Positions 30,147-62,794 of a DNA stretch of 64,000 bases are shown here, piece by piece. The stretch lies in NCBI GenBank assembly GCA_050952625.1, contig JBMNLH010000001.1, forward strand, positions 448,001 through 512,000. The letters are read 5' to 3'. The notes below the pieces were generated by a model. The model was not told the origin of the DNA, searched no databases, and saw nothing but the letters and a program-made list of their open reading frames with translations. The position numbers were made by a program, and so were the translations under genes. Each line of letters starts with the position of its first letter. Position 1 is the first letter of the stretch. Origin of the DNA: Bacillota bacterium. Its GTDB lineage: Bacteria; Bacillota; Ch66; Ch109.

Positions 30147-30206
30147 ATATAAGCAATTAATGCTTGGGATGGTATTAAAGTTAGGGTCATTTCAAGTATG
30201 CTTTTA

Positions 30207-30240
30207 AAGCTGCCGGTTCGAGACCGGCAGCTTTATTTTT
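30207..30240 (+). terminator. Intrinsic terminator
   Basis: AAAGCTGCCGGT-TCGAG-ACCGGCAGCTTT followed by a T run. Confidence 0.85.
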
Positions 30241-38554: not shown

Positions 38555-41500
38555 ATGGCCGAAATGATATGCGCAATTGAACAAATCAACAATCAGGGTG
38601 AAGAAGCGTTTTATCGTGCACTTGATGCTTATTTAGACAACACTCATGTCGTATATTGGAATCGTGAGATATATGGCCGCGAGTTTGATTTTTGTGTCCT
38701 CATTCTTGAAATTGGAATCGCAGTTATTGAAGTAAAAGGCTGGCAAGAAGACACTATTGTTGATGTTCCTCGCGGTGAATATGTAATCATCCGAACTGAA
38801 CAAGGGGAAGAATGTAGTAACCCTCGTATTCAAGCCCGTGCATATCGTTTTGCAGTGTTTAATCACATAAAAAATAAATTGGGGAAGCAGCCTGTGGTAT
38901 TTCACATGGTCTGCTATCCTTTTATATCTTTTGATTCTTACATAGACAAGCATCTTGACCTAATTAGTGAACCTCAGCTGACGTTCACAAAGGATGATTT
39001 AGCATCAAAAGATAATTTTTTAAACAAGCTGGATCAGGCTATTGCTTTTTTCCGCAACTGGGGTAGTCACGCATTTACCCCAATTTTAATGAATCAGGTC
39101 CGTTCTCTGTTTGAGCCAAATGTTTGTTTTGAAAAAGAAGTGGCTGATACCAAATCGATAAGCAAACCTAAGTGCCATCATTTAATCCCCTGCTACTCGA
39201 TTGTCTGCTATATTCCTGCTTCTGAGAATAGTTGGCAAACAATTATTGACGAGCTGGCTGAGGCATACAGTAGTGGATGTCGTATTTATTGCATGGTTGG
39301 AACTCAGGAAATGCTTAAATATACCGCAGAAAAAGTCACTAAGATCCTAAAAGATAAAGGTTTAAAAGTAAACCATAAAGGCGATTTAGAGCTTGGTGTT
39401 ATTAGCTTATTACCGGTTGACAGTTCACGTCTATCCATATTCAATTGGCAAACGGTGATCATAGATTCTGTTGCTACCTTAAAAGATATACCTCATTTCA
39501 AGGTTATAGACGGTGAGCTTGATGCCTTGCCAGAAGCTGAAGCATGGTTATTCAAGCTGGATGCCTGTGGAGCATTTAATTTTTCGCAATACCTAGTAGA
39601 ACATGCCAAGACACACAAAAATATTTTAGTGCGCGCCGGTGCTGGTACGGGCAAGACTTATGCCATGATATTGCGTGTTGCTTATTTGTGCTACGCAGAA
39701 GATATTTCCCCGGCCAATCTTGCGGATCGCATATTAATGATAACGTTTACTAATGATGCGGCCGATAATATGAAAAATCGCTTAAAAAGCTGTTTCCAGA
39801 ATTATTTTTTGCTTACCGGGCAAGTCGATTTTCTTGAGATGATCGCCCAAGTTGACTGTATGCAGATTAGTACTATTCACTCATACGCCCAATGTATCAT
39901 TAAAAAACTTGGAACAGCAGTTGGATATGGCCAGGATTTGAAAATAACCTCTGGTCTTTATAATCGAAGACTTTTATTGGAAGAAACTCTTGAGAATTAT
40001 GTTCGAGAACAAACCAGAATTAACCCGCAATTCCTTAACGGACTTGGATTGCCAGTCTACGAGCTTCGGGAGAAGTTGATGACTTTCATAGACCGCCTGG
40101 AGAATAAAAGCATTGATATATCCGAGGTTAAGCCGGAACAATTTGGTACTACTAAAAACAATCAACAACTACATCAGTTATTGATTGCCGTTTTAAGTCA
40201 AACGGAACGAGAATTTGACAAGCTATTACTTAAAGAAAACCGTATATACCTTGGCAGTATAATGTCTGTCTTAGCGCGTCTGGTTGCCAAATATCCAGAA
40301 AGGCTTCAAGAAGAATTGTCATTTGGCACTCGCTATATGTTTATAGATGAATTTCAAGATACGGATGACATACAAATTGCGGTTCTTAAAGAGATTTGTC
40401 GGCATGTAGGATACTTAATGTTCGTCGTTGGCGATATTAAACAATGCATCTACCGCTTCCGGGGAGCTGAAGAAAAAGCATTTGACCACCTAAAAATAGA
40501 TGAAGATCCTAATCTTTGGGAAGAGTTTTCTCTCTTTCAAGAATTACAGAACAGATAAAGATTTGCTTAAACGGTATCAAAATATCTTTTCTGTCTGGGG
40601 CAGACCTAAGAAAAATTTACTTACCTATGATCCTCAAGTTGACACATTAATTAGCGATTTGTCCTTTAATAATAATGCTCCGGCTGATTCATACTATCAT
40701 GTCATTTCTATTAGTGCAGAAAGTAATCGTTTACCGGAAAACCTTCAACGAAGTACGCCGTTATTCAGAGATGATTACGCGACTCCTCACCGATGGTCAG
40801 CATCTATCCAATGCGGAAAGAACGATCGCCATATTAGTGCGTGAAAATTGGCAAGTGAAAGAAATTGTAAAGCATGGTCGGAACGAAGGTTATCCCGCTA
40901 TTCAAACCAGTACCGGTGGTGATCTGTACCAGTCTGTACCGGCCATGGAGTTGTGTACCTTACTTGAGGCTTTACTATTTAACGATCCAGAGCAATTAAG
41001 TCATCTATTGGAATCCAATCTTTTTGGTATATTCCCAGACCGGCTTAAAATGTATGCATTAAAGCCAGCTTTTGCTCGGGGTGAAAAATCGCTGTCAACG
41101 TCAGGTTGAGTACCTAATTAGCCTCATTGATGATATGTTGAGCCAAACGGCTGAGCCCGGTGGTTATACTTGCTGGAAAAACGTTCTGGAAGCGTTACGC
41201 ATATCACCGGTGTTGCAAGTAATCCGTAGCCTATATAACCAACTTCGCCCATGGGTAAGGTTTGGTAAACAACAGGCATGGATGCGTTCATACTACCGAA
41301 TGAATGTGGATTTACTGTTTGAAAAGATCCTGCAAAACTATGGATTGAACAATCTTACCCTTCACCGTCTAGCTACTTTTATGCAGCTCAACATTACCTC
41401 TGGACGTTCCGAGGAATGTCGCTGGGGGGCCTAGTCAAGGGGACAGTGACATCAGGATCCTTTGTACAACTGTCCATAAATCCAAGGGACTGGAGTATGG

Positions 41501-41795
41501 CTATGTTATTCTGCCTTATACTTCGTTTGCCATAGACAACCTTAAGCATTCCGGGATGGATATTATGGTGGGGACTAATGGCACTATTGGTTACAGCTTC
41601 AGATATGCTGATAATCAGGTGCTGCGTAACAATTACTATAATTACGCTCAGGAAGTAGCTGAGCGATTGAACGAGGAAACACGGATCCTATATGTGGCCA
41701 TGACCAGAGCAATCCGGGCTTTTTCATGGATTAAGCTCCAAACAAGTCGTGCCACCTCATGGCAGAGCCTATTGGAGGGAGGTACAAACATATAA
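38555..41795 (+). CDS. NERD-nuclease/UvrD (SF1A) helicase fusion, about 1078 aa after correcting four +1 homopolymer insertions
   Basis: N-terminal REFDF..IEVKGW..NP..QAR.Y (NERD); AGAGTGKT, ITFTNDAA, STIHS, FIDEFQDTD, VGDIKQCIYRFRGA, KNYRT, AILVREN, TVHKSKGLEY, EETRILYVAMTRA; shifts near 40536, 40740, 41080 and 41427. Confidence 0.85.
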
Positions 41796-44636
41796 TGAGT
41801 TTTCAAATATATACCTATGGCGATCCCTATCGCCTTGATGAAACGAGCTTTTGGGATAATATCAAAGGTGCTCCTCATTTGTGTAGCTCTCAGGTTATGG
41901 CTAAAGCTTTTCGCAACCTATTTGACTTTGATTCTTTAGTTTGTCCCATTGATAATGTGCTACAAGTAGTCTATAGCGGCTGGTTTAACAATATTGAAAG
42001 GCGTATTGCGCAATACATTGCCATATCAAAACAGCTGGAAGCATGGCAGAAGCGAGATCCCAACAACCGTGATGAACTTTATGCTTCTTTGAAACATAAC
42101 CAAGGCTCTCTGCTGGATGCCCTTCGTTTGTTTGTAGAATTAGGAATAGAGGCAAAAAGCCTGCATCGTTCGCAAGCTAACCTTGAACAAAAGGTTTTTA
42201 TTGCCCTGCTTAATGAAATCAATAATCCAGCTAACCAATTACACGACTCATTTACTTTTAAAGATGGCTATTCCCTAGAGGAGCTTGTTGTCTTTTTTCA
42301 GGACGTAATTGCTTGTGAGATAAAACGTGAAGAAAATGAAGCTATCAAATCAGGCGACCCTCGTTATCGTCGTAGAGCAAGAATTAAAAAATTGCGTGCT
42401 ATTTTGGACAACTTTACTATCCACAATCTAAATCGGGTCGTGGTCCATGGCATTCATCAGTTTACCCCTTTGCAGCTGCGGTTTATCATGCTGCTGGACA
42501 AGCTGGGAGTAGAGGTTGCGTTCCTGTACAACTACCAATCGGAATTTAAAGAGATATATGCTACCTGGGAGCAGATATATCAACTCTTTGGTGTACCTAT
42601 TGAACGGGATACCCTGCTTGGGGCTTATAAAAGTAATACAAAAAGCTACAACCTTGCCAAAGCCTTCGGGCAGCTAATTGAACCAGCTACTCAGCATAAG
42701 GCCCAGGATAGATTAAGCTGGTATCAGGCCGGGCAACAGGTAGAAATGCTTTCTTTTGATAATATTACCGAATATGCCGGGTTTGTTTCTGTTTATTTTG
42801 AGAAGGCCTTGCAGCAAAATCATAACGACCCTAACTCGGCTATGTCTGAGAAAGTATATAGTGCGGGGCGTGAAGTGCATGACTTGCTTCGTCTTTATTA
42901 TCCGCAGCAATCCGGTGATCGCCACTTCCTTTGCTATCCGATAGGCCAATTCTTTAATGGGCTTTACCATATGTGGGACCCGCAAATTGGTCAGCTAAGA
43001 ATTGATTGGGGTTTTTTGAAGGAATGCTTTTCCGCCGGAATACTGCGCGTACCACATCCAGAAAAACTTAATTCTATCTTAGAGATTATCAGTCCCTACT
43101 TCGAGGACGTTAAAACATATGGTCAGCTGACTACTCGCTTAGCTGAATATAAAAAGCAATATAATGCTATTCAGACTATGCAAAATGAGCTTGGCCGACA
43201 ACTCCGCCGCATTGCTTTCTACCGTTCCAATATAATCAATATTGAAGATATTGAAAGCTTTGAAAGTGCTGTAAACCAGCTTAATTCTATTGCGGCTCAT
43301 CTGTTCGCGAGTGATGCCAACAACTACTTGTCATTTGCCCAACATTTTCAAAGGCTTGAGGAATTTATCCGAAACGAACTCTTTAATCTGGTTGAAGCTC
43401 AAGAAAAGGAACTTGTTGAAAGTCTGTTAGAACGGTTTGCCCAGATAGATTATAATACAACTCTGTCTGGTACCATGGAGGATTTAAGGAACGGAATTTA
43501 TTATTATTTGAAACAAAAGAATGCGGAATCCCCGGATTGGATAGTCCGTAATTTTGTTCAGATTGAAGGCGATATTCTCCGCAGTAGATTTCAAAAAGAT
43601 CACGCGCTGAAGAACGGTAAAGAACCTCCTACATACCATTTCGCCTGTTTATCTGACCGCATGATGAACAAAACTATGGATGACCTTCTACCCTGGCCTC
43701 TTTCTGATTACTTTATTCGCAAGGCCTATTCACCTATTGCCTTGATATTCCAGGTTTACTATACAGCATTAAGCGATTATGCCAAGTTTTTACGTTACGC
43801 TTTTTTCTATGGACTTTGCTACAACAATTGCCCGGTAAGGCTCAGTTATGTCGTGCATACGGAGGATAAGGAAGATCAGCCATATTTCTTATTGCGGATG
43901 CTCGGCATAAATATTAAATCGAGCAGTGAATTGGAAACCTTGGTTACTGCATTGCCCACCATTACTGCAGACCAGACTTGTACCACTTTTGTAGCAGGCC
44001 CAGTATGAAATGATGGACTTCTTCCTGTGCCCATATAAATACTACTTGGACATGGTGTGCCGAGGGGAAATTGTCATTGATAATGCTTTCCTCCTCAAAC
44101 GCTATTATTCAAATATGTTGGTTCATGCTGTTTGGAAGCAAATGGCCGGCAAACCGAGAATGAGCGACTCAATCACTACGGTTCGTAAATTACTGAAAAG
44201 TGCCCAAGAAACCTACCGACGGTATTTTCCGTTTTATCGTGACGCTAATGACCTATATGACATGATGCGGGTCGCGGAGAACTACATTGAGCATCATCTA
44301 TGGGAAGGTCGCCTGATGAAAAAATACGATGAAGCACACATGAATATTCGGTTCTTGTTTCAAAAAGCTCGCTTTGAATCCGAAGATTTAAACCCACATC
44401 CTTATGCGGCATTTGAGGCGAAAGCAAGGGTCAATGGCGGCAAAAAAATATATTCCCTCCATATGATTAATCCCTATGGTGAAAATAAACTACTTGAGGC
44501 AATGAAGGAATACATGAAGGTGAATATTGACAAATGCACTGTTGTAGGGGATTGGTGTAATAATTGTGCGCATCGGAAGATATGTCTTAAACCCTATCAG
44601 GTTGAACTTAATAATACTGCCATAGAGAGTGAGTGA
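41795..44636 (+). CDS. Large AddB/Cas4-like protein with a C-terminal four-Cys staple, about 946 aa after correcting a +1 C at 43999-44001
   Basis: TAATG overlap with the UvrD gene and GGAGGGAGG RBS; VVVHGIHQFTPLQ resembles the degenerate AddB helicase motif; FFLCPYKYY ... WCNNCAHRKIC. Confidence 0.6.
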
Positions 44637-47600
44637 CAATGAAACCTGGCATGTATGTTCGTATCCCCATTCGTACTGAAGAAGCGGATGAGCAATTTCC
44701 GCGTACCTTTGCCTTAGCGCAGATTAAAAGCATAGACCACCTAGCTCAAACGGCCAAGGTAGTCATTCATGACTTAAACTGTTGCAAGGACTATTATAGT
44801 GATGCCTTCCAAAGTGATGAGGTGGCTTTACGGGATCTGATAAGGTGTAAACCGCCCAAGGGCAGTATTGTTGCTACACCATCTGGCAAAGGTAGGGTAA
44901 TGTTCATTACCCGAAGAGAAGATAATCCATACAATATTTACCATATTAGCCTGGGTGACCGTGATGTCAGACCATTTGAGGAAAAAGATGTCAAGGCTGA
45001 TTTTACAGCCATTGATGTTGATCCTGCATATATGTTGATGCGTTATGAGTTTCAAAATCCAACCTGGTTCGCCTGTCGTAATGTTGTCAGCAGCATCATG
45101 CATGTTCTCAATAACGCTGTCTATGGTTTCAAGGTATTAGCCGGCTGTCGGGTTTTTCTCTTGCCCCATCAGGTAGTGACCATTGTCCGCTGTCTGGAAA
45201 ACGTTCCGGTTCGTTATATGCTCGCCGATGAAGTTGGGTTAGGCAAGACTATTGAGGCTTGCTCCATAATCAAAATTTTGCAAGAACGCAATCCGGCCTT
45301 GCGGGTACTTTACGTTTTACCCATGCCACTCATTGATCAATGGAAATTCGAGTTGATAAACAAATTTTCTATTCTAGCGGAAACAGTCGATGAAGCAGAT
45401 CTAACATCAAAGCACGTTATCATATCGACCCAACACTTATCCAGGTTGAACAGTCAAACCGTCATAGACATACTGAACTTTGATGTTATCGTCGTTGACG
45501 AAACGCATCAATTACTGAGCGACAATAAGGCATATAATAATATTTTCCAACTAACCAAAAAGACCGAGCATGTTCTGTTACTTAGTGCTACTCCAATACA
45601 AGACAGAAAAGAAGAATACCTGCGCCTTTTAAGACTGCTTGACCCGAAGAAGTATGGGAAGATGCCCCTTGAACGGTTTAATGAGCTTGTGGAAAAACAG
45701 CAAGATATTCAGCGTGAATTGTATTTACTATTGGGGGACATACAATCTTACGCCGACTACGCTGAATCAATCGTTGAGCAACTTATAGCGATCGCCGACA
45801 ATTTGCAGGATCCCCGTTTGAAATCCTTAATAGAATCTATTGATTTAAGTTCTGCGGACGCTGGTCAAGAAATAGCTTTTCAGGCAGCTGCCTATATTAG
45901 TGAGCATTATCGCCTGGAGCGGCAGGTCATCCGTAATCGCCGAGCCTTGCTAGAACAGCAAATGGCTAAACGTGAGCTGGTTGAGTGCCCTTACCAAATG
46001 GTCAGCCTAAACGAATTATATGGGGAGTTTGATGCTGTTAATAATCTAATCCAGTGGTTACAAGACACCAACAATAACACCGACCTTTTTGTGGATAATT
46101 TTACCTATCCATTATTAGCAGCTGCCTTTAGTTCTTCCTGGGCCTTGAAAGCACGGATTGATTCACTAATCTCTAAAGGCTATAAGATTCCGGTAGATGT
46201 TGGGGAAGCTGTTGAGCAATGGGTCCGCTCGGCCAATAGTGAAATAAAGCGGGTAGATGAATTGCTTGATGAAAATCCTGACCAAATTAAAGGCCGGCTG
46301 CTGCATTGCCTGGACTACTTAGAGCAAGAAACAGATCTTACTTCTTCCCGTCCTTATAAGGCACTTATTTTTACCAGTTACCCTGAAACGCTAGAACCTT
46401 TTCTTAAGATTGCCCGTCATAGGCTGGGCGAAAAAACATGTGTTGCTTTTTATTCTGGAATGACTCGAGATGAGTTACAAGAAAGCGTCGAAGCATTCCA
46501 AAGCGATCCGGATTGCCGTCTGCTCATTTGTGACGAACTAGGTGGTGAAGGACGCAACTTTCAAATAGCCGATGCAGTTGTCCATTTGGATACTCCCTGG
46601 ACCGCTAATATGCTTGAACAGCGGATTGGACGTTTAGACAGATTGGGCCGCGATGTTGCAAAGCCGGTTACATCTATTGTTTTTTATACTGAAGGTACAA
46701 TTGAGGAACAGCTCGTGTCCCTATGGAAGGATGGTATGGGAATATATACTCAATCATTGAGTGGCCTTGAAATTATTACCGGTGAAATCTCGAAGCGTAT
46801 TGTAAGTGCAATTAAAGAAGATGTCCGTGATGGTTTATCTCACGCCTTACCAGACATTCAGTCTGAAACAATGCGGATGCGTGAAGCGGTGGAAGAAGAA
46901 CAGTTTTATGATATGACCTCCATGCTATATCGTCCCCTGACTGTTGGAGTAGAACGCATGTTGTCCATGTATCAAGGTAAGGAAGATGAAATTTTCTATA
47001 AGGCCATGAATACTTGGTCATCACAAGCTGGACTTATTTCTAGTTCATACATTGACCGTAACGGAAAACCGGTAACGGAGTTTTCAGCCAGCAGATTCAG
47101 TCCAGCTTCATCAATGAACGCTTTTTTAGTGCCGCCTGATTGGAGTAAATATAAAAATCGTCAGGTATTTAGACAAAATAATAATAGAAGGGAACAAAGC
47201 ATTAAAGGTACTTTTAACCGTTCTTACGCGATTAATCGAGAAGATTTACATTTCTACGCTCCCGGCGATCCAGTCTTTGATAGTATTATTTCGAATGCCA
47301 TGACATGTTATCGGGGACGAGCTTGCGCGTTTGAAATTCAAAATGCGCGATTTGATTTTGATGGCTTGCTGTTTATTTGGAACGTGGAACCTAACATAAA
47401 ACCGATAATTGATAGAAATTATGACCCAATTGTGTTAGCTCAATTCAGGACGTTCTTACCAATGGAGCAGATTGTTACTCTTTACCCGGTTGATGATGAA
47501 TCTACAGTTGTATCCCCAGATGATATAGCAGAACTAATAGCTAAATTTCATATAATCAGAAATGCAAAACATCTGGGGCGACGCAGAAATTCAGCAAGGG

Positions 47601-50402: not shown

Positions 50403-50403
50403 T

Positions 50404-51192: not shown

Positions 51193-51198
51193 TAATTA

Positions 51199-54100
51199 AT
51201 GATGAAATGGAATAATGTTCTAGACAGATTAAATGAGATTATCCAAGTTGATGTTATGGCTGACGAAGAATGGGACTTTATGGCCACACACATGCCCTTT
51301 AATCGGCTGGCCGTCCAATTCTCCGGGCTTACCAAGGCAACTGCGGATGAGATGAGCGAAGAAGAAATATACCAGCAACTGGTTTATAACCCCAACGATG
51401 AACACCGGATGATTATTGTCCGCGGCCCCAACGGGGCCGGTAAATCACACTTAATTCGTTGGATTCGTTCCCGGTTGAACAGCGATAAGCACAATGAAAC
51501 CATTAAAGCTGAAAAAATTGTATTTATAAGACGAATTGATAATACTTTGCGGGGTGCTATGCGGCAACTGATTGAGCAGGATGTCGTTAGCGATCCAGTC
51601 CAGAAAGAGCGCATGTTGACCTTTATTCAAAGTAGCGATGCTCAAAGTGAAGGGGAACTCAAGTCCTCTATTTACTTCCAATTTGTTACGAAAATTGAAA
51701 ATGAAGAAGAAGAAAGCAGTTATAAAGCTGCGGAACGAAAAAGGTTAGTTACCTTCTTGCTTGATGATACGATCAGAAACTATCTTATGCGTGAAGAAGG
51801 CCCCATTACCCGCTTTTATGAACTTATTGCCCGTCCCCATGGGAGTGCTCAAGGCATTGAGGCCACTTTTAAACCGGAAGATTTTACTTCCATGCGTTCT
51901 ATCATGGCGGATGTGCAGCGTAATGGTAATAATGAAACCAGACGTGTGTTTGCCGAAGTCAAGGAGTTAAAGGGTGCCGAAAAGCTATCTACTTATCTTA
52001 ACCGTTTTGCCCATGCCGTAATCCAAACCTGCGCTAATATTGCTCAGGGTGATGCAGAAGAAATGTTCCGACAATTAAGACTTGACCTCAAACGGGAAGG
52101 GAAAGCCCTTACCGTACTGATAGAGGATATGACAACTTTTACTGGCATAGATTCGGAATTGATAAAGATATTATCCGTCCAGCATGGCGGTGAGTATAAA
52201 GATTTATGCCGGGTTACTTCCGTCATCGGTATCACTGATGCTTATTACGAAGCCCACTTTATGGGAAATTTCCAAAATCGTGTTACTCATCAGATAAGTG
52301 TTGATAGCAACGCTTTTGGCAGTGAAGAAACATTAGCGCAGATGGCAGCCCGGTACATTAACGCTGCCTACATGACCCGACAGGAAGTTATTGACTGGTA
52401 CAAACAAGGGGCGGAAGCAGCACAGTTGCCTTATCGTACCTGGGAGCCGGACTTTGGTTGGGAAACGGTAGATGTGGCTGGTCAGGCATTTTCACTATTT
52501 CCATTTACTAAGAGAGCATTATCTGACCTATTTAGCCGGTTGCCCGAAAAGACCCCTCGCTTCTTTATCCGTGACATCATCCGTACGCAAATGAGTGCCT
52601 GGGTAGGTTTTCAACTTAAGCAGCGAGATTTCCCCAATATAGCAACAAGTGCTGTTGGGGAAAGACCCATCCAATTTGCAGAAATGCAGCACGCGGCTCG
52701 TTTTGATACGTTGCCTTTTTCCAACGAAGAAAAGGCTCGTTTAAGAGCATTGCTTTGTATTTGGGGCGATGGCCGGTTTCATGAAACTGGTGACGGTGAG
52801 AATAAAGTGATCGGTGGTTTACCGATTAAATATCTGCAACTTTTAGGATTTAATGAATTATCCGGTATCCGTTCAGAAGCAACAGCACAACCGATTATTC
52901 AAAACCCTATAAAGCCCGTGCCGAAAACTCCACCGGTTCCCGTTGAAGTATCAGGCCGAAACAAAAAGTATCAGAACGACCTGGATGATATTGAGAATTG
53001 GTATCAAAACAAGGCTGTTTTGTCTAATTCTGAAGATGCCCGTAGGCGTATTTATGAATTTATAATTGAAGCGATCAATTGGCAGATGGAAGGCGTTCCT
53101 GCCTACCTAGTTAATAACAGATTGAATACGCGAAGCATATATATTGAAGGTCAACGACAGCGTAGTCCAGACAGAGAGCAAGCCATGGTAGTTATAGACC
53201 GTAATAATGAAGCATACTGGCTATTGCTTGCCCTTACCCATTGGGGACATAACACCCGCAGTTGGGACTTTAAAGATTCTGCCTTTATGCAGTTCAAGCT
53301 TATTTCATGGCTCGAAAAACACAAGATGGAGATTATTACTCGAATCAAGGGTGAACCAGAGACACCACCCTCTTCTATTCTTCAATGGTCTATGGCCTTA
53401 GAGTATTTGCGGCTTGGAATGAGTGGCAGTCTATCATATACCGAAAATAGCGAAACCTTGATGAAAAAGTTGTTTGCTGGTTCTGTATCATTAGTTCATC
53501 CGCGTAGCGATGATAATGGGGCCTGGAATCGGCTGCTGAAAAATATTAATCAAAATTCTGAGGAGTTGAGTAAAAATAAAAAGCTCCTCGTGGCCTTACC
53601 GAATACTCACATGGGGAGTGTGGCGAGGCAAGGAGAGATCAAGAAACATCTCTATCATCGAGATGCAATTGATGATGCCTTCAATGTCCTGAAACAACTT
53701 GACTGGGATGCTACTTCTCTACTGCCCAATATAGATATTGATAAAGGAGAGTTGCATACCAATGCGGCTAAACTGTTACAATCTTTATTACCTGGCGTAA
53801 AAGAAGTGTTAATTGACGAAAAGCGTAAGGCTACAGAATTATTAGAGCAATTGAAGAATGAGCTTGGTGATGACCTTGGTCGAGATACTTGGATCAATGC
53901 GTCAAGGGATATAATAGCCTTCCTTACCTTATATAACACCAAGTATGGCGGTTCGTATCCAGGTCCTCTGCGCGAAAGAGCGGCCAAAATTGAAGAGAAT
54001 GCTACTCTGCTTGCCCGATTATGTAGAAGAGCAGCAGAGGTGGTAGGCGGCAATAAATTCTCTTTGGAGCTTGCCTTCTTCTCGACAGACCCCTGTCAAA

Positions 54101-54294
54101 CAATGAAAGATGCGCTAAACACCATCCGAGAAGTCGAAAAGCTAGCTAATGATGCTGCGGTCAAAGCTGAGAGTGATCTAGCTAAACTACGCCAGACAGC
54201 AGCCGTAGATAACACGAAATTTGATACTCTTAAAGACGGTTTGATAAGGCTCATTGAGCGTATGGGGCAGTTTGGAGGTGAGAATAATGCTTAA
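51199..54294 (+). CDS. dpdH: Large P-loop ATPase, DpdH-like
   Basis: Walker A GPNGAGKSHLIRW, Walker B LTVLIEDM, ARYINA, LFPFT, TPRFFIR; 1031 aa. Confidence 0.72.
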   Translation: MMKWNNVLDRLNEIIQVDVMADEEWDFMATHMPFNRLAVQFSGLTKATADEMSEEEIYQQLVYNPNDEHRMIIVRGPNGAGKSHLIRWIRSRLNSDKHNETIKAEKIVFIRRIDNTLRGAMRQLIEQDVVSDPVQKERMLTFIQSSDAQSEGELKSSIYFQFVTKIENEEEESSYKAAERKRLVTFLLDDTIRNYLMREEGPITRFYELIARPHGSAQGIEATFKPEDFTSMRSIMADVQRNGNNETRRVFAEVKELKGAEKLSTYLNRFAHAVIQTCANIAQGDAEEMFRQLRLDLKREGKALTVLIEDMTTFTGIDSELIKILSVQHGGEYKDLCRVTSVIGITDAYYEAHFMGNFQNRVTHQISVDSNAFGSEETLAQMAARYINAAYMTRQEVIDWYKQGAEAAQLPYRTWEPDFGWETVDVAGQAFSLFPFTKRALSDLFSRLPEKTPRFFIRDIIRTQMSAWVGFQLKQRDFPNIATSAVGERPIQFAEMQHAARFDTLPFSNEEKARLRALLCIWGDGRFHETGDGENKVIGGLPIKYLQLLGFNELSGIRSEATAQPIIQNPIKPVPKTPPVPVEVSGRNKKYQNDLDDIENWYQNKAVLSNSEDARRRIYEFIIEAINWQMEGVPAYLVNNRLNTRSIYIEGQRQRSPDREQAMVVIDRNNEAYWLLLALTHWGHNTRSWDFKDSAFMQFKLISWLEKHKMEIITRIKGEPETPPSSILQWSMALEYLRLGMSGSLSYTENSETLMKKLFAGSVSLVHPRSDDNGAWNRLLKNINQNSEELSKNKKLLVALPNTHMGSVARQGEIKKHLYHRDAIDDAFNVLKQLDWDATSLLPNIDIDKGELHTNAAKLLQSLLPGVKEVLIDEKRKATELLEQLKNELGDDLGRDTWINASRDIIAFLTLYNTKYGGSYPGPLRERAAKIEENATLLARLCRRAAEVVGGNKFSLELAFFSTDPCQTMKDALNTIREVEKLANDAAVKAESDLAKLRQTAAVDNTKFDTLKDGLIRLIERMGQFGGENNA

Positions 54295-54952
54295 GGATAT
54301 CCTGGAGAATGCGCAAACAAGACTGGAAACAACACATACTGCGCAGACCCGGGTAAGGGATAATGATCTTTTTGTTAAAAATCTGGATAAAGTGTTGGTC
54401 GCGGCCAACAGCCTGGAATTATACTTAAACACGGCTGCTGCCGCGGAAGCGAATCGGTTAATGAATGTTTCACTTGATGCCATTATCCGAAACGACATTA
54501 TAACTACACTGCAGATGGTGCTTTCCCAAATATATGAAGGTTACTTGGAAACAGCATCCGTTTCAAGTGTTAGCAAAAATGTCGCTAATTTCAAGAAACA
54601 CCTGGATTCGTTATGGGTAAGCTCTCAAAAAAGCGCAACAGAGCAGGTTGTATCGTTGCTTAAGACGTTTAAGCAATTTATGCCTAACGAATATGAGGCC
54701 AATAATATTATCAACAATTTAGAAAAAGCTTTAACTGGCCTTCCAGCTAGTGTTAATAATGTAAATGCTTTTTCGGCCAACCTTCAAAAGGCCCGTCAAA
54801 TGGTAGAACAAATTGGAGCTGATGAGGAAACTCAAGCTTTCATCCAGAAGGTACTTGATAAACAGGCTACGCTTGCTGATATAACACCTAACGTTTTGGC
54901 ATGGATTTACAAACATGATATTACTAGGAGATTAAAAATAAGCCTTGTTTGA
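54287..54952 (+). CDS. Helical DpdI-like protein
   Basis: GGAGGTG RBS, overlaps the end of the DpdH-like gene; 221 aa, predicted all-helical; C-terminal ATLADITP.VL.W. Confidence 0.5.
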   Translation: MLKDILENAQTRLETTHTAQTRVRDNDLFVKNLDKVLVAANSLELYLNTAAAAEANRLMNVSLDAIIRNDIITTLQMVLSQIYEGYLETASVSSVSKNVANFKKHLDSLWVSSQKSATEQVVSLLKTFKQFMPNEYEANNIINNLEKALTGLPASVNNVNAFSANLQKARQMVEQIGADEETQAFIQKVLDKQATLADITPNVLAWIYKHDITRRLKISLV

Positions 54953-55632: not shown

Positions 55633-56274
55633 TTGAAAAAAAAAGAGACAAAAAATATTGCGGTAAAGTGTAATTGGAACGACGCTGGTTATAAATGGAT
55701 ATGTAGCGATGCTGCATATCGTTACAATATAAAAAACAAAAATAAGTGGTGCTCTAATGAATACTGTGGTTGTCGGGAATTTGTCGAATTTGATAAATTT
55801 GCTTTCCCATGTTTTGATAGTGTAATATTTCGTGATTATTGTGTGCGTATATCTGGTAGCCCTTGGAGAATAAAAAATACCGAGGAAGGTAAAATAGCGT
55901 TACTTACTACTAGAGACCCTGATTGTATAGAAGAGGATAGATTTATATTCGGCTTTTTATATATTGAAGATTTATATGAAACTGATGAAAATGGGTATCT
56001 ATGTACTGAGGTTTATGGTAATAAAAACAAATCGTTAAAAATTGATGATCACATTATGAGATATATGAAATTTTGGGACTATTACGAAAATGCTAATTCA
56101 TATAAAATGCATTGGGGCTCAGGTCTTTTCCGTTACGTAGAGAATGTAGCAATTTATAGATTTTTATGTGATTTAGAAGAGAATTATGAAAAATACGAAG
56201 GAGATAAAGCTGTTTTACCTATTATTAAAGAGCTTATTCAAGAATACAGGGGATATTATGTAGATGAATGTTGA
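55633..56274 (+). CDS. Cys-rich hypothetical protein
   Basis: GGAGGG RBS, TTG start; KCNWND..ICSD..WCS..CGC..FPC; LTTR.P..EEDRFIFG; FWDYY; WGSGLFRY. Confidence 0.7.
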   Translation: MKKKETKNIAVKCNWNDAGYKWICSDAAYRYNIKNKNKWCSNEYCGCREFVEFDKFAFPCFDSVIFRDYCVRISGSPWRIKNTEEGKIALLTTRDPDCIEEDRFIFGFLYIEDLYETDENGYLCTEVYGNKNKSLKIDDHIMRYMKFWDYYENANSYKMHWGSGLFRYVENVAIYRFLCDLEENYEKYEGDKAVLPIIKELIQEYRGYYVDEC

Positions 56275-56450
56275 TCGTTGATTTTACTTATTGGTGGGAA
56301 ATCAATAAAATGTTTAAATTGCTTTGCATTACCCTATCCTTCTGGCGAGTAAGAGCCATTAATAGTCTAACCAAAACTTAATCAGGAAAAACCATTTACA
56401 CTAAAGGATGCTCACACCCCCTATTTATTTCCCTTCTTTCATTCTGATTA

Positions 56451-57593
56451 TTAATTTGTAGTATTTTTAATATACTCCAAGAGCTTATTAAAATCTATAC
56501 TATGATTACTTGACCACGATAATCGCAGCGCACTATTTATAATCTCATCACTTAGCCCCATGGCAGTCAGGACATGGCTTGGCGTATAGCTGCCGGAATT
56601 ACATGCCGAGCCATTAGAAATAGCGTAATCATTTTTCAGAGCGGCGAATACACTTTCGGAGTCCACTCCGATGAAGCTGATATTGATAACATTAGGTAGG
56701 CAATAATTCTGATCACCATTTATAACGTAGTTTAAACCCTCAATAGCTTTGAAAAGTTTTTCTTTTACCTGCTGGCAATTTTTAAGCCATGAGGCATGTT
56801 CCTTTTCAGCCAGTTCCGCAGCATAGGCCAGGCCTGCAACAAGAGGTACTGGTGTAGTGCCGGGTCGGAATCCATATTCTTGCTTTCCTCCATAGAACAA
56901 TGGTTTTATGGGGGGTCTTTTATATTTTTTTCTTTTTAATACAAGCCCGCCAACGCCCTGGGGGCCTTTTATTTTATGACCGCTTAAGCTCAGCATATTA
57001 TACTTGGCTGTGCGCAGCTCATCATTAAGTTTTCCGAAAGATTGGGCTGCGTCAACATGAAACAGGACATCTTTTTTATCCAGCTCAAGGCCAATCTCTG
57101 AGATTGGCTGAATGATACCGGTTTCATTGTTAACGTGCATTACTGATACCAGCAAGGTATCCGGCCTCACTTTCGACAATACATCCTCAGCCTTTATGCG
57201 TCCAGAGGTATCGGGATAAACAATATCCAACTCAAATCCCTTGCTCACCAAATGGTGCATTGGTTCTAGCACAGCTTTATGTTCGATAGCGGTTGTTATT
57301 AGGTGTTTCTTGCCGGTTTCAAGGCCATAATCCATCAAACCAAGAATCGCCATGTTGTTGCTTTCCGTCGCCCCGCTGGTAAATATCACCTCGGACTTAT
57401 CGATGGCAAGTATATCACCCAAAGTCCTGCGCGCCCGTTCTACCACTTCCTTCGCTCTGGTCCCAAATAAATGAGTACGGCTATCTGCATTGCCATAAAT
57501 ATCGGTAAATATCCGGGTGACTTCTTCAAGTACCCGCGGGTCTATCGGGGCAGAAGCATTGTAATCAAGATAAATTGGCATAAGATCACTCAT
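56451..57593 (-). CDS. dndA: Cysteine desulfurase of the DNA phosphorothioation operon (DndA/IscS-like)
   Basis: YLDYNASAP, FTSGATESNN, EHKAV, HVDAAQ, SGHK, SNGSACNSG; translationally coupled to dndE. Confidence 0.9.
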   Translation of the reverse strand: MSDLMPIYLDYNASAPIDPRVLEEVTRIFTDIYGNADSRTHLFGTRAKEVVERARRTLGDILAIDKSEVIFTSGATESNNMAILGLMDYGLETGKKHLITTAIEHKAVLEPMHHLVSKGFELDIVYPDTSGRIKAEDVLSKVRPDTLLVSVMHVNNETGIIQPISEIGLELDKKDVLFHVDAAQSFGKLNDELRTAKYNMLSLSGHKIKGPQGVGGLVLKRKKYKRPPIKPLFYGGKQEYGFRPGTTPVPLVAGLAYAAELAEKEHASWLKNCQQVKEKLFKAIEGLNYVINGDQNYCLPNVINISFIGVDSESVFAALKNDYAISNGSACNSGSYTPSHVLTAMGLSDEIINSALRLSWSSNHSIDFNKLLEYIKNTTN

Positions 57594-57973
57594 TTCTTTG
57601 AAAGTACTAACTCCAGAAGTTCTTGGCTGTTTTTGGGGCCATTTTTCGATGCGAGATAATTAATCCCTCTATTTAGATGCTGCCTAAAATACCTAGCAAT
57701 TGTGGTCTGATCTGTGTCAAAACCATCTTCTTTACAGCGTTGTCTAACTATTGCCTCATATATTTCGTGGCATTCACCGCCGAATGTATGCCAGCTCATT
57801 TCAACATTACTGTCAGAGGGTATGTCGGGCCCAGTTGGTATTGTGGGATTCTCCAATGACAAACATAAAGCCCAACGGCAAAGCACATTCCATTGGGAAA
57901 TACCTGTTTTAGATTTAAGCCGGATAAGCTTTTCTTTCTCCTGTTGTGATAGTCTTATCTGCTTTAAGATCAT
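57590..57973 (-). CDS. dndE: DNA sulfur modification protein DndE
   Basis: IRLSQQEKEKLIRLK.KTGI.QWNVLCRWALCLSL, SNVEMSW.TFGG, FRQHLNRGI. Confidence 0.92.
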   Translation of the reverse strand: MILKQIRLSQQEKEKLIRLKSKTGISQWNVLCRWALCLSLENPTIPTGPDIPSDSNVEMSWHTFGGECHEIYEAIVRQRCKEDGFDTDQTTIARYFRQHLNRGINYLASKNGPKNSQELLELVLSKK

Positions 57974-59949
57974 TGAACTATCCCTCCAAAGTACCCGGTC
58001 CGAATAGATGTACATTGATTCTGTTCATTGTAGTCCAACAGGAATACCTTATTCAAATATGGTTCTATAAGCTCATAGTACTTTCCATTGATTTCTTCAT
58101 CGGTTGAAAGGACAATGACCTGTTTGCTAGCATAGGGGAAGTAATTTTTCAGGATATTGGTCCGGTGGTTTGAATCCAATCTGCCCAATGGTGTATCAAC
58201 AATAACCGGCATTTGGTATCCCGAGCAATTTGCCAAACCCCATAGGATTGATACCGCAAATATTTGCTTCTCACCAGCTGAAAGTTGATTTTTAAGTAAT
58301 TCACTGCCGAGGTAATCAATAAGCCTAATATCCAATGTTTCAGGATTAATCTCAATTTTTTGAATCAGGCTTTCTTTTTGGGCAATAAAGGTAAAGCAGT
58401 CAAATATCTGTTGTTCAAGTTGCTTAACCCGCCTCTGTTGCAGGCGTACTTTAAAGGCTTCCATGACCTCAATAGTCATGGAAGCATATTTAATCATGCG
58501 CATAGCTTCATCTTGGCCTTGCTCGTCAAGCTTAACCATCTTAAGGGCTGCCTTGCGCCGGCTTTCAAACATTTCTTGACGTTTTAATAGCGTCTGCTGC
58601 TTTTCTTCTTCAACATGAATTTGCGTCTCAAGTTGGATAATTCTTTGGGTCAATTGGCGCATTTTATCCCAAATGTCTTTGACATCAGTTGACTCAACAT
58701 CATAATTCAAATGTAATTCCAATTGTTGAATTTGATTATCCAGGTCTTTAATACTTACAATGAGCTTATGAACGTCTTCCAATTGTTTAGTCGCTTGGCC
58801 GATAATTGTAGAAAAGATGCTTTGCGCAACGGGGGCGAGTTCAGGTAATTCACCACCAGCATAACTATGCCGCAATTCGCTTTGTGCTCTGATTAAAAAG
58901 TCTAAGATCACTTTTTGTGCAGGCTGTTCAAGGGCTGATGCCGTCAGCAGCTCTTTAAGCCGTTCAATAATCGTGCTGGAGTACTTGGCAGACCGTAAAC
59001 GATCATCTTGTTGTACCTGATTGTAGGTGCGTTCAAGTAGAGGCTGACAAATCAATAATGGCGTCATAGCGCGATTTACCAACTCTTTGACCTCTTCCTT
59101 TTTGGTCAATAACAATTCATTGAGCCGATTCTTTTCTGCCTCAATTTTTTCACGCTTTAGGCGAAGATTACCGCCTTGGCTCCAAAAAATGTTTTCCAGA
59201 TCAGCATACTGTTTACGGGCCTGGCCAACTTCGCGATTTAAACGGCCGGTCAGAGCAACCGACTCCGCAATATCTTTTTCACATTGCTCAATCCCCTGTT
59301 GGGCTTCTATCATTTTTTGATAAGCCTCAGACTGTACCGAAGAATTATTGTTAATACTGACCCGTTTTATGAGCTTCTTCATGTCGTTAATCAACTGGTC
59401 TACTGTAGTTAGTCCCAGGAGTAATTTGATCGAGTCTTTAACACTTTCATAGCTGTTATCATCGGCAATTTGAGCTATCTTCTCGTTATCAAAGAAGAAA
59501 AAGCGGGAAATACTCAACGGCAGAATTTCCTCAACGTAGTAATCCCAGTTTTCCGAAAGGTATGGATCTTTTATGCCATTTTTATAGGCGGTAAAGTTAT
59601 CGGTTACAATGTTTTTCCTAATTGACCAATAACGTTGAATAGTAATCGTATCTTCACTGTTTTCGTCTTTTAACAGGGTTAATGTAATAGAGGTTTGTTG
59701 GTCATCTGCACTTTTATTCACATGATGTCTCAAATACTCAGAATAACTGATGCGTTCATCCTGTAAAAATCGCAATGCCCGGCGACCATATAAAACTAAA
59801 AAAACAGCCTCGAGCAGGGTAGTTTTGCCTCGGCCATTAAGGCCGCCTATTAATGTAATTGTCCGACTGCCCGTGCACCTTGGAAATTCAATTACATGAT
59901 AGCCTTTATATAAACCGTAGTTAAGCAATTCAATTTTTTTAAGCAACAT
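57970..59949 (-). CDS. dndD: DNA sulfur modification protein DndD (SMC-like ATPase)
   Basis: GGLNGRGKTT, FFFFDNEKI, long coiled coil, LSAGEKQI, VDTPLGRLDS.HR, LSTDEEI. Confidence 0.92.
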   Translation of the reverse strand: MLLKKIELLNYGLYKGYHVIEFPRCTGSRTITLIGGLNGRGKTTLLEAVFLVLYGRRALRFLQDERISYSEYLRHHVNKSADDQQTSITLTLLKDENSEDTITIQRYWSIRKNIVTDNFTAYKNGIKDPYLSENWDYYVEEILPLSISRFFFFDNEKIAQIADDNSYESVKDSIKLLLGLTTVDQLINDMKKLIKRVSINNNSSVQSEAYQKMIEAQQGIEQCEKDIAESVALTGRLNREVGQARKQYADLENIFWSQGGNLRLKREKIEAEKNRLNELLLTKKEEVKELVNRAMTPLLICQPLLERTYNQVQQDDRLRSAKYSSTIIERLKELLTASALEQPAQKVILDFLIRAQSELRHSYAGGELPELAPVAQSIFSTIIGQATKQLEDVHKLIVSIKDLDNQIQQLELHLNYDVESTDVKDIWDKMRQLTQRIIQLETQIHVEEEKQQTLLKRQEMFESRRKAALKMVKLDEQGQDEAMRMIKYASMTIEVMEAFKVRLQQRRVKQLEQQIFDCFTFIAQKESLIQKIEINPETLDIRLIDYLGSELLKNQLSAGEKQIFAVSILWGLANCSGYQMPVIVDTPLGRLDSNHRTNILKNYFPYASKQVIVLSTDEEINGKYYELIEPYLNKVFLLDYNEQNQCTSIRTGYFGGIVQ

Positions 59950-59954
59950 ACTGA

Positions 59955-61434
59955 TTACCCTCCGCTTTCATCAGTCGCAACACGTGAGGGTTCGTTAATC
60001 GGTTCTTGATACTTCTTGTAGAATACCAAAGCATCTTCTTCGTTTTTAAAGAAGGCACGTTTAATTGCCCCTTCCAAGCTTTTATTAATACCCCGACGAG
60101 TGGCCTGCATATCAAAACGTGATTCAATATCCAGTAAAGTGCTTTGCATTTCTAATAACAATTCTTCATCCGGATACAGTTCCCGGCATACTTCCGCTAA
60201 AATAGTCCATTCAGCCTGACCAAAATACTTATTGCCTGGCATGGCTGGGTCAATAAATTTTTCTCCGGTTACTTCCTGATAAATTCGCGGTAGTGTATCC
60301 TCAAACTCATGCTTTTCGTTAAGCCATATCTGGCGAATAGCCCGGAGCTCGTCCAATGTGATTAGCGGATGGGTTTCTACTTCTTTGGGGCCTTCATGCT
60401 TAATATATTGGTTAACTTCAAGTAACCGACGAAGCAAATACTCTCTTGTTTTCTTAGTATACGGGCCATGAACCAGCCTGCCGTTATGATACGTCAAACG
60501 GCCGTCCTTGCGGCGAAAATCGCGTCGCTGTCGATCTATTTCGTTGTTAGCAGCTATTTCGTTGCGAAAGTCTAGCAATGGCAACATCCAGGCTTTTTCT
60601 TCGTCGTTCTGCACCATTGCGGCCATAGATTTATCTTCGGCGACCAAAGTGCAGACCCAACAGCCGAATCGGCTATTCCCACAGCTTGGTGTATCTGTAT
60701 CTAGGACCAACGGACATTCACCATCGGCTGATGCACCGCGATACATTGCCAGTAATTCCTTGTTAGAATGTCCCCATGGATTAGGATGCTGCATCAAATA
60801 CTGCCATACATTATCGTTTGTCCATTCCTGGATGGGAGAAAAAACATAGGAATTGATCATCGAACCATTTGGACTAAGATGTTCCCGGACTCGACGACGC
60901 TCGTAGCTTTCCATTAACGCTTTACGGGCTGAACTTTCAGCTTTGCGCGTTCCCAACACCAAGATGACCTCGCCAGCAGCCGATATAATATTTTCTATGA
61001 AATTGTTGGCGGGATTTATTTTTAAGCGAGTAGTACACCAACGAAAACTATGACGCGGGTATGGGTAGCCTCGGCCTATTAAATTAACCCAATAGGTATC
61101 ATTGATTGCGGGGGTTAATCGATGAACTTGGATGGGCATTCCTTTTTCATTAGCTGCTGTACGTAGCCTTTTCAAGGATTGTTCAACCCACGCGGCAACT
61201 ACAGGTGACTCAACCAAAGTATCGGTACTGATAACATGAATAGGCTTATGGTTTCGTTGTTTTTCTGGCAACTGGGAAATGGCATTCCAGACAAGCTGTA
61301 ACGTTTGCCGTGGAATCTTTCCCCCCACTATAGCCACAAACCCATGGAATAGAGTCTTCCAGATATAATCGCTGGATGAGATCAGTGAGGTTGATGACAT
61401 CCTGTTTGGTTAGAATTTGCACTGTCATAGCCAT
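59955..61434 (-). CDS. dndC: DNA phosphorothioation sulfurtransferase DndC, split by a +1 A at 61304-61306 (probable sequencing error)
   Basis: PWVCGYSGGKDST; removing one base gives KDSTATLQLVW; DTLVESP, RWCT.RLKI.P, GTRKAES, ECP, SCGNSRFGCWVCT. Confidence 0.92.
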
Positions 61435-62468
61435 CACCGTCCTACCATGAGAGTTTCCTTTAAAACTTCGACTAGCGCATTTGTGCTGCTTCTGGTGCCG
61501 GAAATATGTCCTTCAACCACAACTTTACCAGCCCATTCAGGATTGTTTTTGCTCCAATTAACCTTCGTGAGCCGAGGCAGATGTTTCTCGAAACTATTAT
61601 ACTTCTTCAGCAATATATTTCCAACTCTGCCTAAGGCAATCAAGGCAATCGAATGAGCTGAAACAGATTCCTTGCGCAGTTCAGATGCTTTCTTTCCTTG
61701 TAAAATAACACTCTGCCAATCCGGCATATTATCAAATACACCGGACCAAAATCTATATGTTGTATCCTTTTGTTGCTCAATCGTCAAATCAGAAAGGTCA
61801 TTCAATAAAGCTTCTGTGCCATGGTAAATACCGCTAAGAGTAAAAAGAGCTTTGGAACGATTAGGAATAGTAGAGCGCTCCTTTTCAACCCAGCCATTAA
61901 ATACCCTAAGTGACTCTACCATTTCACAAATCATGGCAGAAAAATCGTTGCGACTATCGAATAATATGTTCAGTGACTTGGTGGGGCGTATGGCATAACG
62001 ATTAAGATCGGAGAAAATCTGCCGGGAACGGTTTAATCCCATGTCGCTGAAAAAGACAACCGAGATATCTTCATGTTTCAACAATGGGTTATGTTTGATG
62101 GCGGCTTCAATAGCTGCCTTTCTATGTTGTCCATCATTTATCAGGAAACGCGCAGACATCGGGATATTAATTATGCCTATTTTACACTCCTTATTCGTTG
62201 GCTCCATTGCCTCAAATTGTATTTCTCCATCAACAGATACAGTGAGAGCAGAAAAAACATAAGATTTTGGATTTTGTAAGATATAGTCTCTTATTTCAGG
62301 AATACGAGCTTTATTCAATATTCGTTGTGCCCGTACTTCGGGCGGCAATTCTTCTTCGTTGAACATAAATAACCGCGGTAAAGTAGATAAAGGCACCATG
62401 GAAATATAGTACTCCGTGCCTGCCTGAACTCCTTTTATTGCCGGAAATCGATATACCGCTACATTCAT
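61434..62468 (-). CDS. dndB: DNA sulfur modification protein DndB (DGQHR domain)
   Basis: FPAIKGVQ, RAQRILN..R, YVFSALT, INDGQHR, QIFSDLN; GAGGTG RBS before ATG 62468. Confidence 0.92.
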   Translation of the reverse strand: MNVAVYRFPAIKGVQAGTEYYISMVPLSTLPRLFMFNEEELPPEVRAQRILNKARIPEIRDYILQNPKSYVFSALTVSVDGEIQFEAMEPTNKECKIGIINIPMSARFLINDGQHRKAAIEAAIKHNPLLKHEDISVVFFSDMGLNRSRQIFSDLNRYAIRPTKSLNILFDSRNDFSAMICEMVESLRVFNGWVEKERSTIPNRSKALFTLSGIYHGTEALLNDLSDLTIEQQKDTTYRFWSGVFDNMPDWQSVILQGKKASELRKESVSAHSIALIALGRVGNILLKKYNSFEKHLPRLTKVNWSKNNPEWAGKVVVEGHISGTRSSTNALVEVLKETLMVGR

Positions 62469-62794
62469 AACCCTACACCTCGGTAAATATTTAAATGGAA
62501 GTCTATAAAAATAAATTGGAAGTCTGTTATCCAGATAATACATCCTTTAGTCGAATCTGGTCAAGGTCTAATGTGAAATATGTTAACGTAAAAATACTTA
62601 CTATGGCAGAGCCCTAAGGGTTAAAGTAGGTTATATCTTTATAATGATGAAACAAACTATTGGGAAACATCGACCAGCATCTATTGATAAGGACCACTAT
62701 GGGTAAAAGCATCAGTGGAGCTTTCAATGAAATATCAAATCGGGTTGGGTTATTAGGGTTTTTGAGAATAATAGGGATGTATAACGACAAGGTA

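Follow-up and report, generated by a model that had tools for sequence, protein, structure and literature searches.

Two families of DNA-modification systems are the closest described relatives of the locus presented here. In the Dpd system, whose mark is a 7-deazaguanine, the genes dpdD-K confer the restriction phenotype (PMC10164549, from the part of that article available to us). In the Dnd system the mark is a phosphorothioate (PT), and Dnd modules frequently occur apart from DndFGH, with other nucleases nearby and NERD domains at the cluster borders, according to the available text of Rakesh, Aravind and Krishnan (2024; PMC10853773). Their pairing with other nucleases has been an open question. 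Nearly half of the surveyed dndBCDE clusters (615 of 1349) are solitary, without DndFGH, and a search for new partners was called for, as the accessible portion of PMC6435447 has it. PT has been detected by liquid chromatography-mass spectrometry as a product of the dnd clusters found in gut Clostridiales, according to the accessible part of a recent preprint (bioRxiv 10.1101/2024.06.03.597175). Here we analyse a stretch of 64,000 nucleotides from a Bacillota bacterium (contig JBMNLH010000001.1, positions 448,001 to 512,000; the whole stretch is called the window), in which a dnd operon converges on an operon of seven genes ending in diverged homologues of dpdE, dpdF, dpdG, dpdH and dpdI. We estimate at roughly 0.6 the probability that these genes form a two-module, island-borne and PT-dependent restriction system, in which Dnd would replace DpdABC and an AddAB-like pair would replace DpdJK.

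Gene content of the two modules

The source genome (G000; 2.9 Mb, 9 contigs, 95.9% complete) carries in the window a tightly packed operon on the plus strand (38555-54952), on which the minus-strand operon dndB-C-D-E-dndA (56451-62543) converges. Proteins of the window were scanned against the PADLOC, Pfam and NCBIfam libraries, and NCBIfam results are quoted as the score over the equivalog cut-off. The dnd genes are contiguous, DndB, DndC, DndD and DndE score above their cut-offs, and DndA falls slightly under that of TIGR03235 (456.8/480), yet DndA is its best match. The first-pass annotation of this DNA had described a complete dndB-C-D-E-desulfurase operon, convergent on the minus strand, and its content, order and strands are as claimed. 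A PADLOC match to PbeC by the product of the dndD gene was set aside as a cross-match between proteins of the same fold, the DndD models scoring similarly, and DndC likewise gives weak PADLOC cross-matches to SspD/BrxP.

The last five genes of the plus-strand operon had been read as dpdE, F, G, H and I, and the profiles, tblastn and hhalign all agree with this identification and order, every one of the five being diverged. The DpdE-like protein carries GLGKT at position 202 and DETH at position 289 and matches the Pfam families SNF2-rel_dom and Helicase_C, the Walker A and DEAH motifs are invariant in the alignment of the DpdF-like proteins, and the Walker A motif (G76..K82 S83) is invariant in that of the DpdH-like proteins. 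The DpdG-like protein has NF041064 as its sole library match, a weak one (24.4 bits against a cut-off of 80), matches the DpdG of locus L006 in tblastn (29% over 139 amino acids, E 3e-11) and lies between the F and H genes, a position that is conserved across loci. The open reading frame (ORF) of 232 amino acids (aa) at the end of the operon gave no match in the PADLOC and NCBIfam scans and occupies the place of DpdI, directly after DpdH. The canonical order was taken from locus L014, where DpdA (NF041059, 424 bits), QueE and DpdB are followed by DpdE, F, G, H, I and J. ORFs following DpdH in 17 canonical loci were compared with their positional counterparts in 9 loci of the window type, and hhalign aligned the window-type family to canonical DpdI with a probability of 99.0% (E 2.5e-18, 217 columns). 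The 232 aa ORF is, as judged by this alignment and its place, a diverged DpdI homologue, and the DpdE-I-like set as a whole is a predicted diverged sub-family of Dpd proteins.

The partners that usually accompany either half were also sought. The single TGT found in the genome is the housekeeping one, and DpdA (NF041059) was detected in none of the five genomes G000-G004, the model recovering the DpdA of L014 as a control. DpdK (NF041068) gave no match in G000, and DpdJ (NF041067) none over its cut-off in G000-G004. No match in the source genome was obtained for DpdB (NF041060), DpdD (NF041061) or DndF, DndG and DndH (TIGR03238, TIGR03237 and TIGR03236), in searches that had no positive control genome. 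The claim that the usual partners are absent therefore stands for DpdA, DpdB, DpdD, DpdK and DndFGH, and for DpdJ as far as matches over the cut-off are concerned, but not for DpdC and the preQ0 genes, which were not searched genome-wide. Membership of the Pbe systems was rejected, PbeA being represented only by a 1e-9 cross-match of the DpdF-like protein with no HKD domain in Pfam.

The AddAB-like pair

The two ORFs with which the operon had been thought to begin (41759-44008, 749/737 aa, and 44010-44636, 208 aa) match nothing in PADLOC, Pfam or NCBIfam, and the same region is a single gene of 886-969 aa in loci L002-L005. A database search returned 132 homologues of the protein, nearly all of about 950 aa, and no Pfam domain was found in them except in 14 of the best 120 of the 132, which are fusions of about 1400 aa with PIN_4 (PF13638; P0142-P0166). 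The PIN_4 domain would be an added effector of the RNase type. An AlphaFold2 model built on 44 sequences reached a mean predicted local distance difference test score of 86.0 and a predicted template-modelling score of 0.71, and its top four Foldseek matches in the PDB are all AddB chains (4cei_B at 8.7e-11, 3u4q_B, 4cej_B and 3u44_B; about 1000 columns), followed by UvrD/Rep/PcrA, AdnAB and RecB. The body of the protein resembles superfamily 1 helicases, without a match to Walker A. In the C-terminal domain four cysteines (C750, C924, C927 and C933 in the numbering of L002) are invariant in 44/44 sequences, with the spacing C...CxxCx5C that we take to be the iron-sulfur (Fe-S) cluster motif of AddB and Cas4. 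The sole match of the profile of this protein to PDB sequences, a weak one, is the C-terminus of Cas4 (E 0.017). No D..ExK motif is conserved in the alignment of this domain; it is therefore probably not the cutting site, and cutting would rest on the NERD domain of the partner protein alone.

That partner is encoded directly upstream by a NERD-UvrD gene, which stands ahead of the AddB-like gene wherever a locus reaches that far. In its full-length form (1078 aa in L002) the protein matches recB (1.9e-40) and addA (5.5e-34), far under the cut-offs, and the D..ExK motif of its N-terminal NERD domain, of the PD-(D/E)xK type, is invariant in 6/6 sequences. The NERD-UvrD gene is, as its matches and position indicate, the AddA/RecB-like partner of the AddB-like protein and a member of the operon, and the NERD domain of this predicted motor is likely to be the cutter. 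The earlier description of a tightly coupled seven-gene operon on the plus strand was right as to packing and strand, but two of its genes are one and the NERD-UvrD gene, at whose start (38555) the annotated stretch already began, had been overlooked.

Recurrence of the pairing and co-occurrence with dnd

Species genomes were scanned with a DpdF profile and metagenomes with a DpdH profile, each scan yielding at least 80 loci, and the counts of loci and clusters that follow refer to the matches listed from these scans. The DpdH-like proteins, including those of the window and of L002-L005, were clustered at 80% identity into at least 34 clusters. A dnd module is adjacent in 19 of the 34; for another 10 the contigs are too short to judge, and the remaining ones are weighed below. 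Adjacency to dnd is thus frequent, but not universal, in the visible sequence. Four of the DpdF-scan loci (L002-L005) combine the AddB-like gene with the DpdE-I-like genes, and dnd directly follows the DpdI-like gene in L003, where it is convergent, and in L004, where it is co-directional, while in L002 and L005 it lies upstream on the same contig in the same direction. In all, three gene orders were found. In the window, L003 and others dnd lies downstream and is convergent; in L004, L104, L167, L171, L173, L176, L177, L179 and L180 it lies downstream in the same direction as the module, after a gap of 35-170 bp; and in G001 and G004 it lies upstream, again in the same direction. The DpdI-like gene is separated from the first dnd gene by 35-440 bp in 25 of 29 loci; in the remaining 4 the distance is 1.8-2.2 kb. 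Metagenome contigs, among them some with human gut in their titles, commonly carry the module. Lacrimispora amygdalina (L004), Desulfosporosinus shakirovi and Brevibacillus dissolubilis, the last two from protein matches, are candidate cultured carriers.

The mostly canonical Dpd loci of the DpdF scan (L006-L049) present a different picture, with DndC/D/E in 0/44, DpdJ in 34/44 and DpdA, as judged by tblastn, in 12/44, and the AddB-like gene was found in 0/44 of them. One of these loci, L035 from a Chromatiaceae metagenome-assembled genome (MAG), has DpdA, E, F and H, with a NERD-UvrD-like match (38%) at about 18218, at the place of DpdJ, and no DpdJ match; judging from its gene content it may be an intermediate between both architectures. 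In some loci an HNH endonuclease gene (PF13395) follows the DpdI-like gene (L002, 17014-18132; L102, 13770-14888).

At the level of genomes, DndC scores above its cut-off in 9/9 genomes with the full module (G000-G004, G222, G255, G293 and G638), and in 7 of the 9 it shares a contig with the module, at most about 6 kb away. Two background samples of 401 genomes each were examined. The first covers the order to which G002 belongs; the AddB-like gene is present in full in 4/401 (G002, G222, G255 and G293) and DndC in 10/401, which include all 4 (hypergeometric p about 2e-7, rising to about 8e-6 when the seed genome is left out; both values overstate the case, kin being non-independent). Five other DndC genomes of this sample have no DpdH-like gene. 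In the genomes examined the full module was seen only together with DndC, and DndC was also seen alone, an asymmetry that is expected if module R, the seven-gene operon, needs module M, the dnd operon, and M does not need R. In the second sample, from the phylum of the window, G638 has the AddB-like gene and DndC, and G531 has a fragment of 342 aa and no DndC. Taken together, the 19 clusters and the nine genomes bear out the expectation that the pairing recurs in other genomes.

Two further genomes of the first sample, G350 and G389, gave weaker matches consisting of the NERD-UvrD and AddB-like pair only (L199-L201), with no DpdE-I set beside it and no DndC in the genome; in G389 there is only a weak SNF2 match at about 5 kb from the pair. 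By itself the pair may already constitute a defence unit.

Phylogeny

In a FastTree phylogeny of 59 DpdH proteins the AddAB-type rows form one clade (28 rows, support 100), with L006 as its sister and the canonical DpdJ-linked rows outside it. The DpdF tree, also made with FastTree and rooted on RecQ, likewise shows one AddAB-type clade (21 rows, support 99), with L006 as sister (support 95), nested inside the Dpd radiation. The Dpd-type proteins of the AddAB-type module do form one clade in both trees, a point that had been put forward for testing. The sister locus L006, from an Anaerolineales MAG (4156-21896), has the order DpdE-F-G-H-I-J, and its genome has no DndC and only one TGT, the housekeeping one, with none of the DpdA type; a protein of 593 aa with no known family is encoded divergently upstream.

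Layout of the island

Both modules lie in a 25 kb island bracketed by an insertion sequence (IS) transposase gene and a fragment of an IS1634-family transposase gene (Table 1), and both are missing from the host's genus and family relatives (3 relatives). Given this joint absence and the flanking IS elements, the Dnd and Dpd-like modules appear to have been acquired together. A tRNA-Leu(CAA) gene (30158-30236, plus strand) lies 8 kb upstream of the island.

Table 1. Features of the island and its flanks; positions are those of the window and NCBIfam values are score/cut-off.
Feature	Position	Strand	Evidence
IS transposase (DDE_Tnp_1 + DUF772), left island flank	37094..38275	+	Pfam PF01609 9e-27, PF05598 1.7e-13
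Predicted AddA/RecB-like NERD-UvrD helicase-nuclease	38555..41786	+	Pfam UvrD-helicase 6e-47, NERD 1e-8
AddB-like subunit	41795..44636	+	Foldseek AddB chains E ~1e-10; no library match
DpdE-like SNF2 helicase	44633..47917	+	PADLOC DpdE 7e-80; NF041062 384.7/500
DpdF-like RecQ-type helicase	47904..50402	+	PADLOC DpdF 8e-130; NF041063 540.4/550
DpdG-like protein	50404..51192	+	NF041064 24.4/80, E 1.7e-5
DpdH-like P-loop ATPase	51199..54294	+	PADLOC DpdH 5e-38; NF041065 263.2/450
DpdI-like protein, 232 aa ORF; start likely near 54287	54254..54952	+	hhalign against canonical DpdI
Cys-rich 213 aa ORF between both modules, accessory	55633..56274	+	no PADLOC, Pfam or NCBIfam match
DndA cysteine desulfurase	56451..57593	-	TIGR03235 456.8/480; PADLOC DndA 6e-122, SspA 5e-128
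DndE	57590..58015	-	TIGR03184 130.8/71.85
DndD ABC/SMC-like ATPase	57970..59949	-	TIGR03185 460.7/245.85
DndC PAPS-reductase-like sulfurtransferase	59955..61400	-	TIGR03183 582.2/290.4
DndB (DGQHR / ParB-like regulator)	61434..62543	-	TIGR03233 404.5/328
IS1634-family transposase fragment, right island flank	63305..64000	-	NF033559 3.7e-22, only profile positions 344-480 of 483

The Cys-rich ORF of 213 aa that lies between both modules gave no match in a tblastn search of the other module loci, and its family has members in Bacillota and in phages. Its structural leads, with template-modelling scores of about 0.5 only, are Nmad3, EVE, McrB N-terminal domains and the N-termini of NucS_C/GIY-YIG fusions; on these models it could be a candidate reader of modified DNA.

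Proposed mechanism and the points against it

In the mechanism that we propose, module M (dndB-C-D-E-A) would write PT marks on the host DNA. Module R would comprise the NERD-UvrD protein, the AddB-like protein with its four-cysteine domain of the Fe-S type, the diverged DpdE (an SNF2 translocase) and the F, G, H and I proteins. The DpdE-I-like proteins would scan DNA as an ATP-driven surveillance complex and, on meeting DNA without the host PT pattern, would load or release the AddAB-like motor, whose NERD domain, a PD-(D/E)xK nuclease, would cut, PT-marked host DNA being spared. The DpdE-I-like proteins are likely to be the surveillance part, by analogy with the role of dpdD-K in Dpd. What the sequences show are the homologies, the AddB-like fold, the conserved NERD motif, the conserved linkage, the co-occurrence and the clades. 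PT dependence, the formation of a complex and the choice of mark reader are inferred, and gene linkage is the ground for taking PT as the self mark. Several observations fit a restriction module reliant on PT marking: linkage persists across the three gene orders, the dependence runs one way, and relatives of the host lack both modules together. The proposal that Dpd-type machinery has been coupled to the PT mark, already made in the first-pass annotation, gains support from the linkage, the co-occurrence and the clades, and those of its stated refuting conditions that could be checked all turned out in its favour, although the AddAB-like pair had there been missed or split.

Several points weigh against a PT-dependent restriction system. 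The reading stands at the genomic level. A PT-reading domain was identified in none of the R proteins, and the AddB-like C-terminal domain lacks the conserved nuclease motif, as described above. The DpdE-, DpdF- and DpdH-like proteins all score under the NCBIfam equivalog cut-offs, as would be expected of a diverged sub-family. Both trees were made with FastTree only, with long branches and compositional bias flagged, the co-occurrence counts include kin that are not independent, and in G255 and G638 DndC sits on another contig. Five of the 34 clusters (L132, L138, L158, L165 and L170) show no dnd over at least 7 kb downstream, their flanks ending inside the NERD-UvrD gene so that only the downstream side is visible. 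L181, whose sequence matches that of the dnd-linked L173 at 94% identity as far as the end of the DpdI-like gene, continues into an adhesin gene and genes like those of integrative and conjugative elements (ICEs). Finally, Rakesh et al. argue, in the available text of PMC10853773, that even DndFGH works stand-alone.

The five clusters without dnd form one sub-clade, and the genes that follow them encode LRR, TelA, rhomboid, GmrSD, HNH, Abi and transposase proteins, with some orphan members of the DndB family. Alternative modification genes were looked for downstream of these clusters and set aside, the neighbours being unrelated or other defence genes. In L142 (13773-14915 and 15107-16393) and its kin, genes for an orphan DndB-family protein (PF14072, 3e-39) and an SNF2 helicase occur without dndCDE. 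In L181 (13937-18815) the copy of module R borders directly on a gene for a TQ/SpaA adhesin and on DUF961/DUF3796 genes, the latter typical of conjugative elements like Tn916, and the module may ride there on an ICE.

Alternative explanations

The main rival holds that the seven genes form an anti-phage system in their own right, independent of any mark, which might for example sense DNA ends or replication intermediates through the AddAB-like pair and would only accompany Dnd in defence islands, perhaps for an additive benefit. The five clusters and L181 without dnd downstream speak for it, as do the NERD-UvrD and AddB-like pairs found alone in G350 and G389 without DpdE-I or DndC, the absence of a PT reader among the R proteins and the precedent of DndFGH as argued in the accessible text of PMC10853773. 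Nevertheless, DndC is present in all nine full-module genomes against 10/401 in the background sample, the two modules stay adjacent in each of the three gene orders at distances typical of an operon, and the canonical relatives belong to a mark-dependent system, as far as the available part of PMC10164549 describes it. Weighing both sides, we consider stand-alone action unlikely, though it is the strongest competitor of PT-dependent restriction.

A second rival concerns the source genome itself, where both genes of the AddAB-like pair are broken in the window. The NERD-UvrD gene runs through five frames with four frame changes, remaining colinear with the 1078 aa protein of L002, and the AddB-like gene is split at about 43999, within a low-confidence linker of the model (718-732). 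If these were true pseudogenes, the restriction side would be dead in this genome and Dnd would be 'solitary' after the loss of R, and the presence of five frame-breaking insertions within 3.5 kb and of an IS element directly upstream is in line with this. The stretch 40300-44200 is, however, present in 20 runs of 16 studies of bioreactor, anaerobic digester and biogas metagenomes, and contigs from four other studies were aligned to it, most pieces being at least 99% alike. Against these contigs the window has one extra letter at each of 40534, 40738, 41093 and 43999 and four at 41424-41427. These five sites are exactly the five frame changes, all in two adjacent genes, and dropping the extra letters gives intact ORFs of 1077 aa and 946 aa that agree with L002. 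Only one substitution (41715 C>A) accompanies the five insertions in 3.9 kb, and assembly error therefore fits better than natural decay. The remaining genes of the operon are all intact. The frame breaks most probably arose in assembly, the alternative being lesions confined to a single strain, and we hold a dead restriction side to be improbable.

A role for the module in PT biology instead of defence, in the repair of breaks or stalled forks at PT sites or in the targeting of Dnd, would suit AddAB-type enzymes, which are repair machines, and the RecQ-like nature of the DpdF-like protein, but it is very improbable given that the closest relatives of the E-I proteins in PADLOC are defence proteins (Dpd, DISARM DrmD and BREX BrxH), that the island is mobile, flanked by IS elements and absent from genus and family kin, that other loci are neighboured by the defence genes HNH, GmrSD and Abi, and that five DndC genomes are without the module.

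Significance and comparison with known systems

We lean slightly towards a broader view in which DpdE-I would be a mark-agnostic chassis, re-plugged between 7-deazaguanine (DpdABC) with YprA/PLD on one side and PT (DndBCDEA) with the AddAB-like NERD pair on the other. On that view the locus would represent an undescribed type of PT-dependent restriction, accounting for part of the 'solitary' dndBCDE clusters, and self-recognition would be a property of an exchangeable adaptor or of the writer, not of the helicases. The module is a concrete, recurrent and testable candidate for the partner of such clusters, and it was present in 4 of the 10 DndC-bearing genomes of the 401-genome order sample. 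The Dpd restriction half would here, as we infer, work with a mark of unrelated chemistry and another nuclease, which bears on how self is discriminated from non-self, and the Dpd-linked and Dnd-linked relatives offer a natural comparison for locating the mark reader.

The GATOR-GC analysis, in the available part of that preprint, required dpdAB and was thus blind to a Dnd-linked type, the main text of PMC10853773, so far as it was accessible, has no mention of Dpd or RecQ, and the preprint on gut PT (bioRxiv 10.1101/2024.06.03.597175) analysed dndC neighbourhoods, the word 'helicase' being absent from its accessible text. In the main texts searched, with supplementary neighbourhood tables outside the search, we found no paper that pairs Dnd with a DpdE-I or AddAB-like module, so that within this scope the arrangement does not appear to be catalogued, as the first-pass annotation had thought possible. 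The catch-all class of PADLOC for mixed DNA-modification systems may flag such loci without describing them.

Compared with the Dpd system (DpdA-K; 7-deazaguanine, of the Salmonella Montevideo type), the locus is alike in its E-I homologues, their order and their overlapping gene junctions. It differs in that the writer is Dnd, that DpdJ/K are replaced by an upstream AddAB-like pair, that E, F, G and H score under their cut-offs, and that the genome is without the DpdA, B, D and K matches and without a DpdJ match over the cut-off. With AddAB, RecBCD and AdnAB the locus shares an AddB-like fold in its protein of about 946 aa, in which C...CxxCx5C is kept, and a partner that matches the RecB/AddA models. 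In the window, however, the nuclease is an N-terminal NERD domain and not a C-terminal one of the RecB type, the AddB-like C-terminal domain is without a conserved D..ExK, and the genes of the pair belong to a defence operon and not to the housekeeping repair set. BREX type 4 and SspABCD-SspE/FGH resemble the locus in joining a PT writer to a large effector set rich in ATPases and helicases, but they use an SspBCD/BrxP writer, PglZ, BrxL and SspE effectors. The PT-writing module is the same as that of DndABCDE-DndFGH, whereas its partner in the window shares no homologous protein with DndFGH. From PbeABCD and the other nuclease partners of Dnd the locus differs in being without PbeA (HKD plus superfamily 2 helicase), and with them it shares the idea, set out in the available text of PMC10853773, of Dnd modules recruiting alternative restriction partners.

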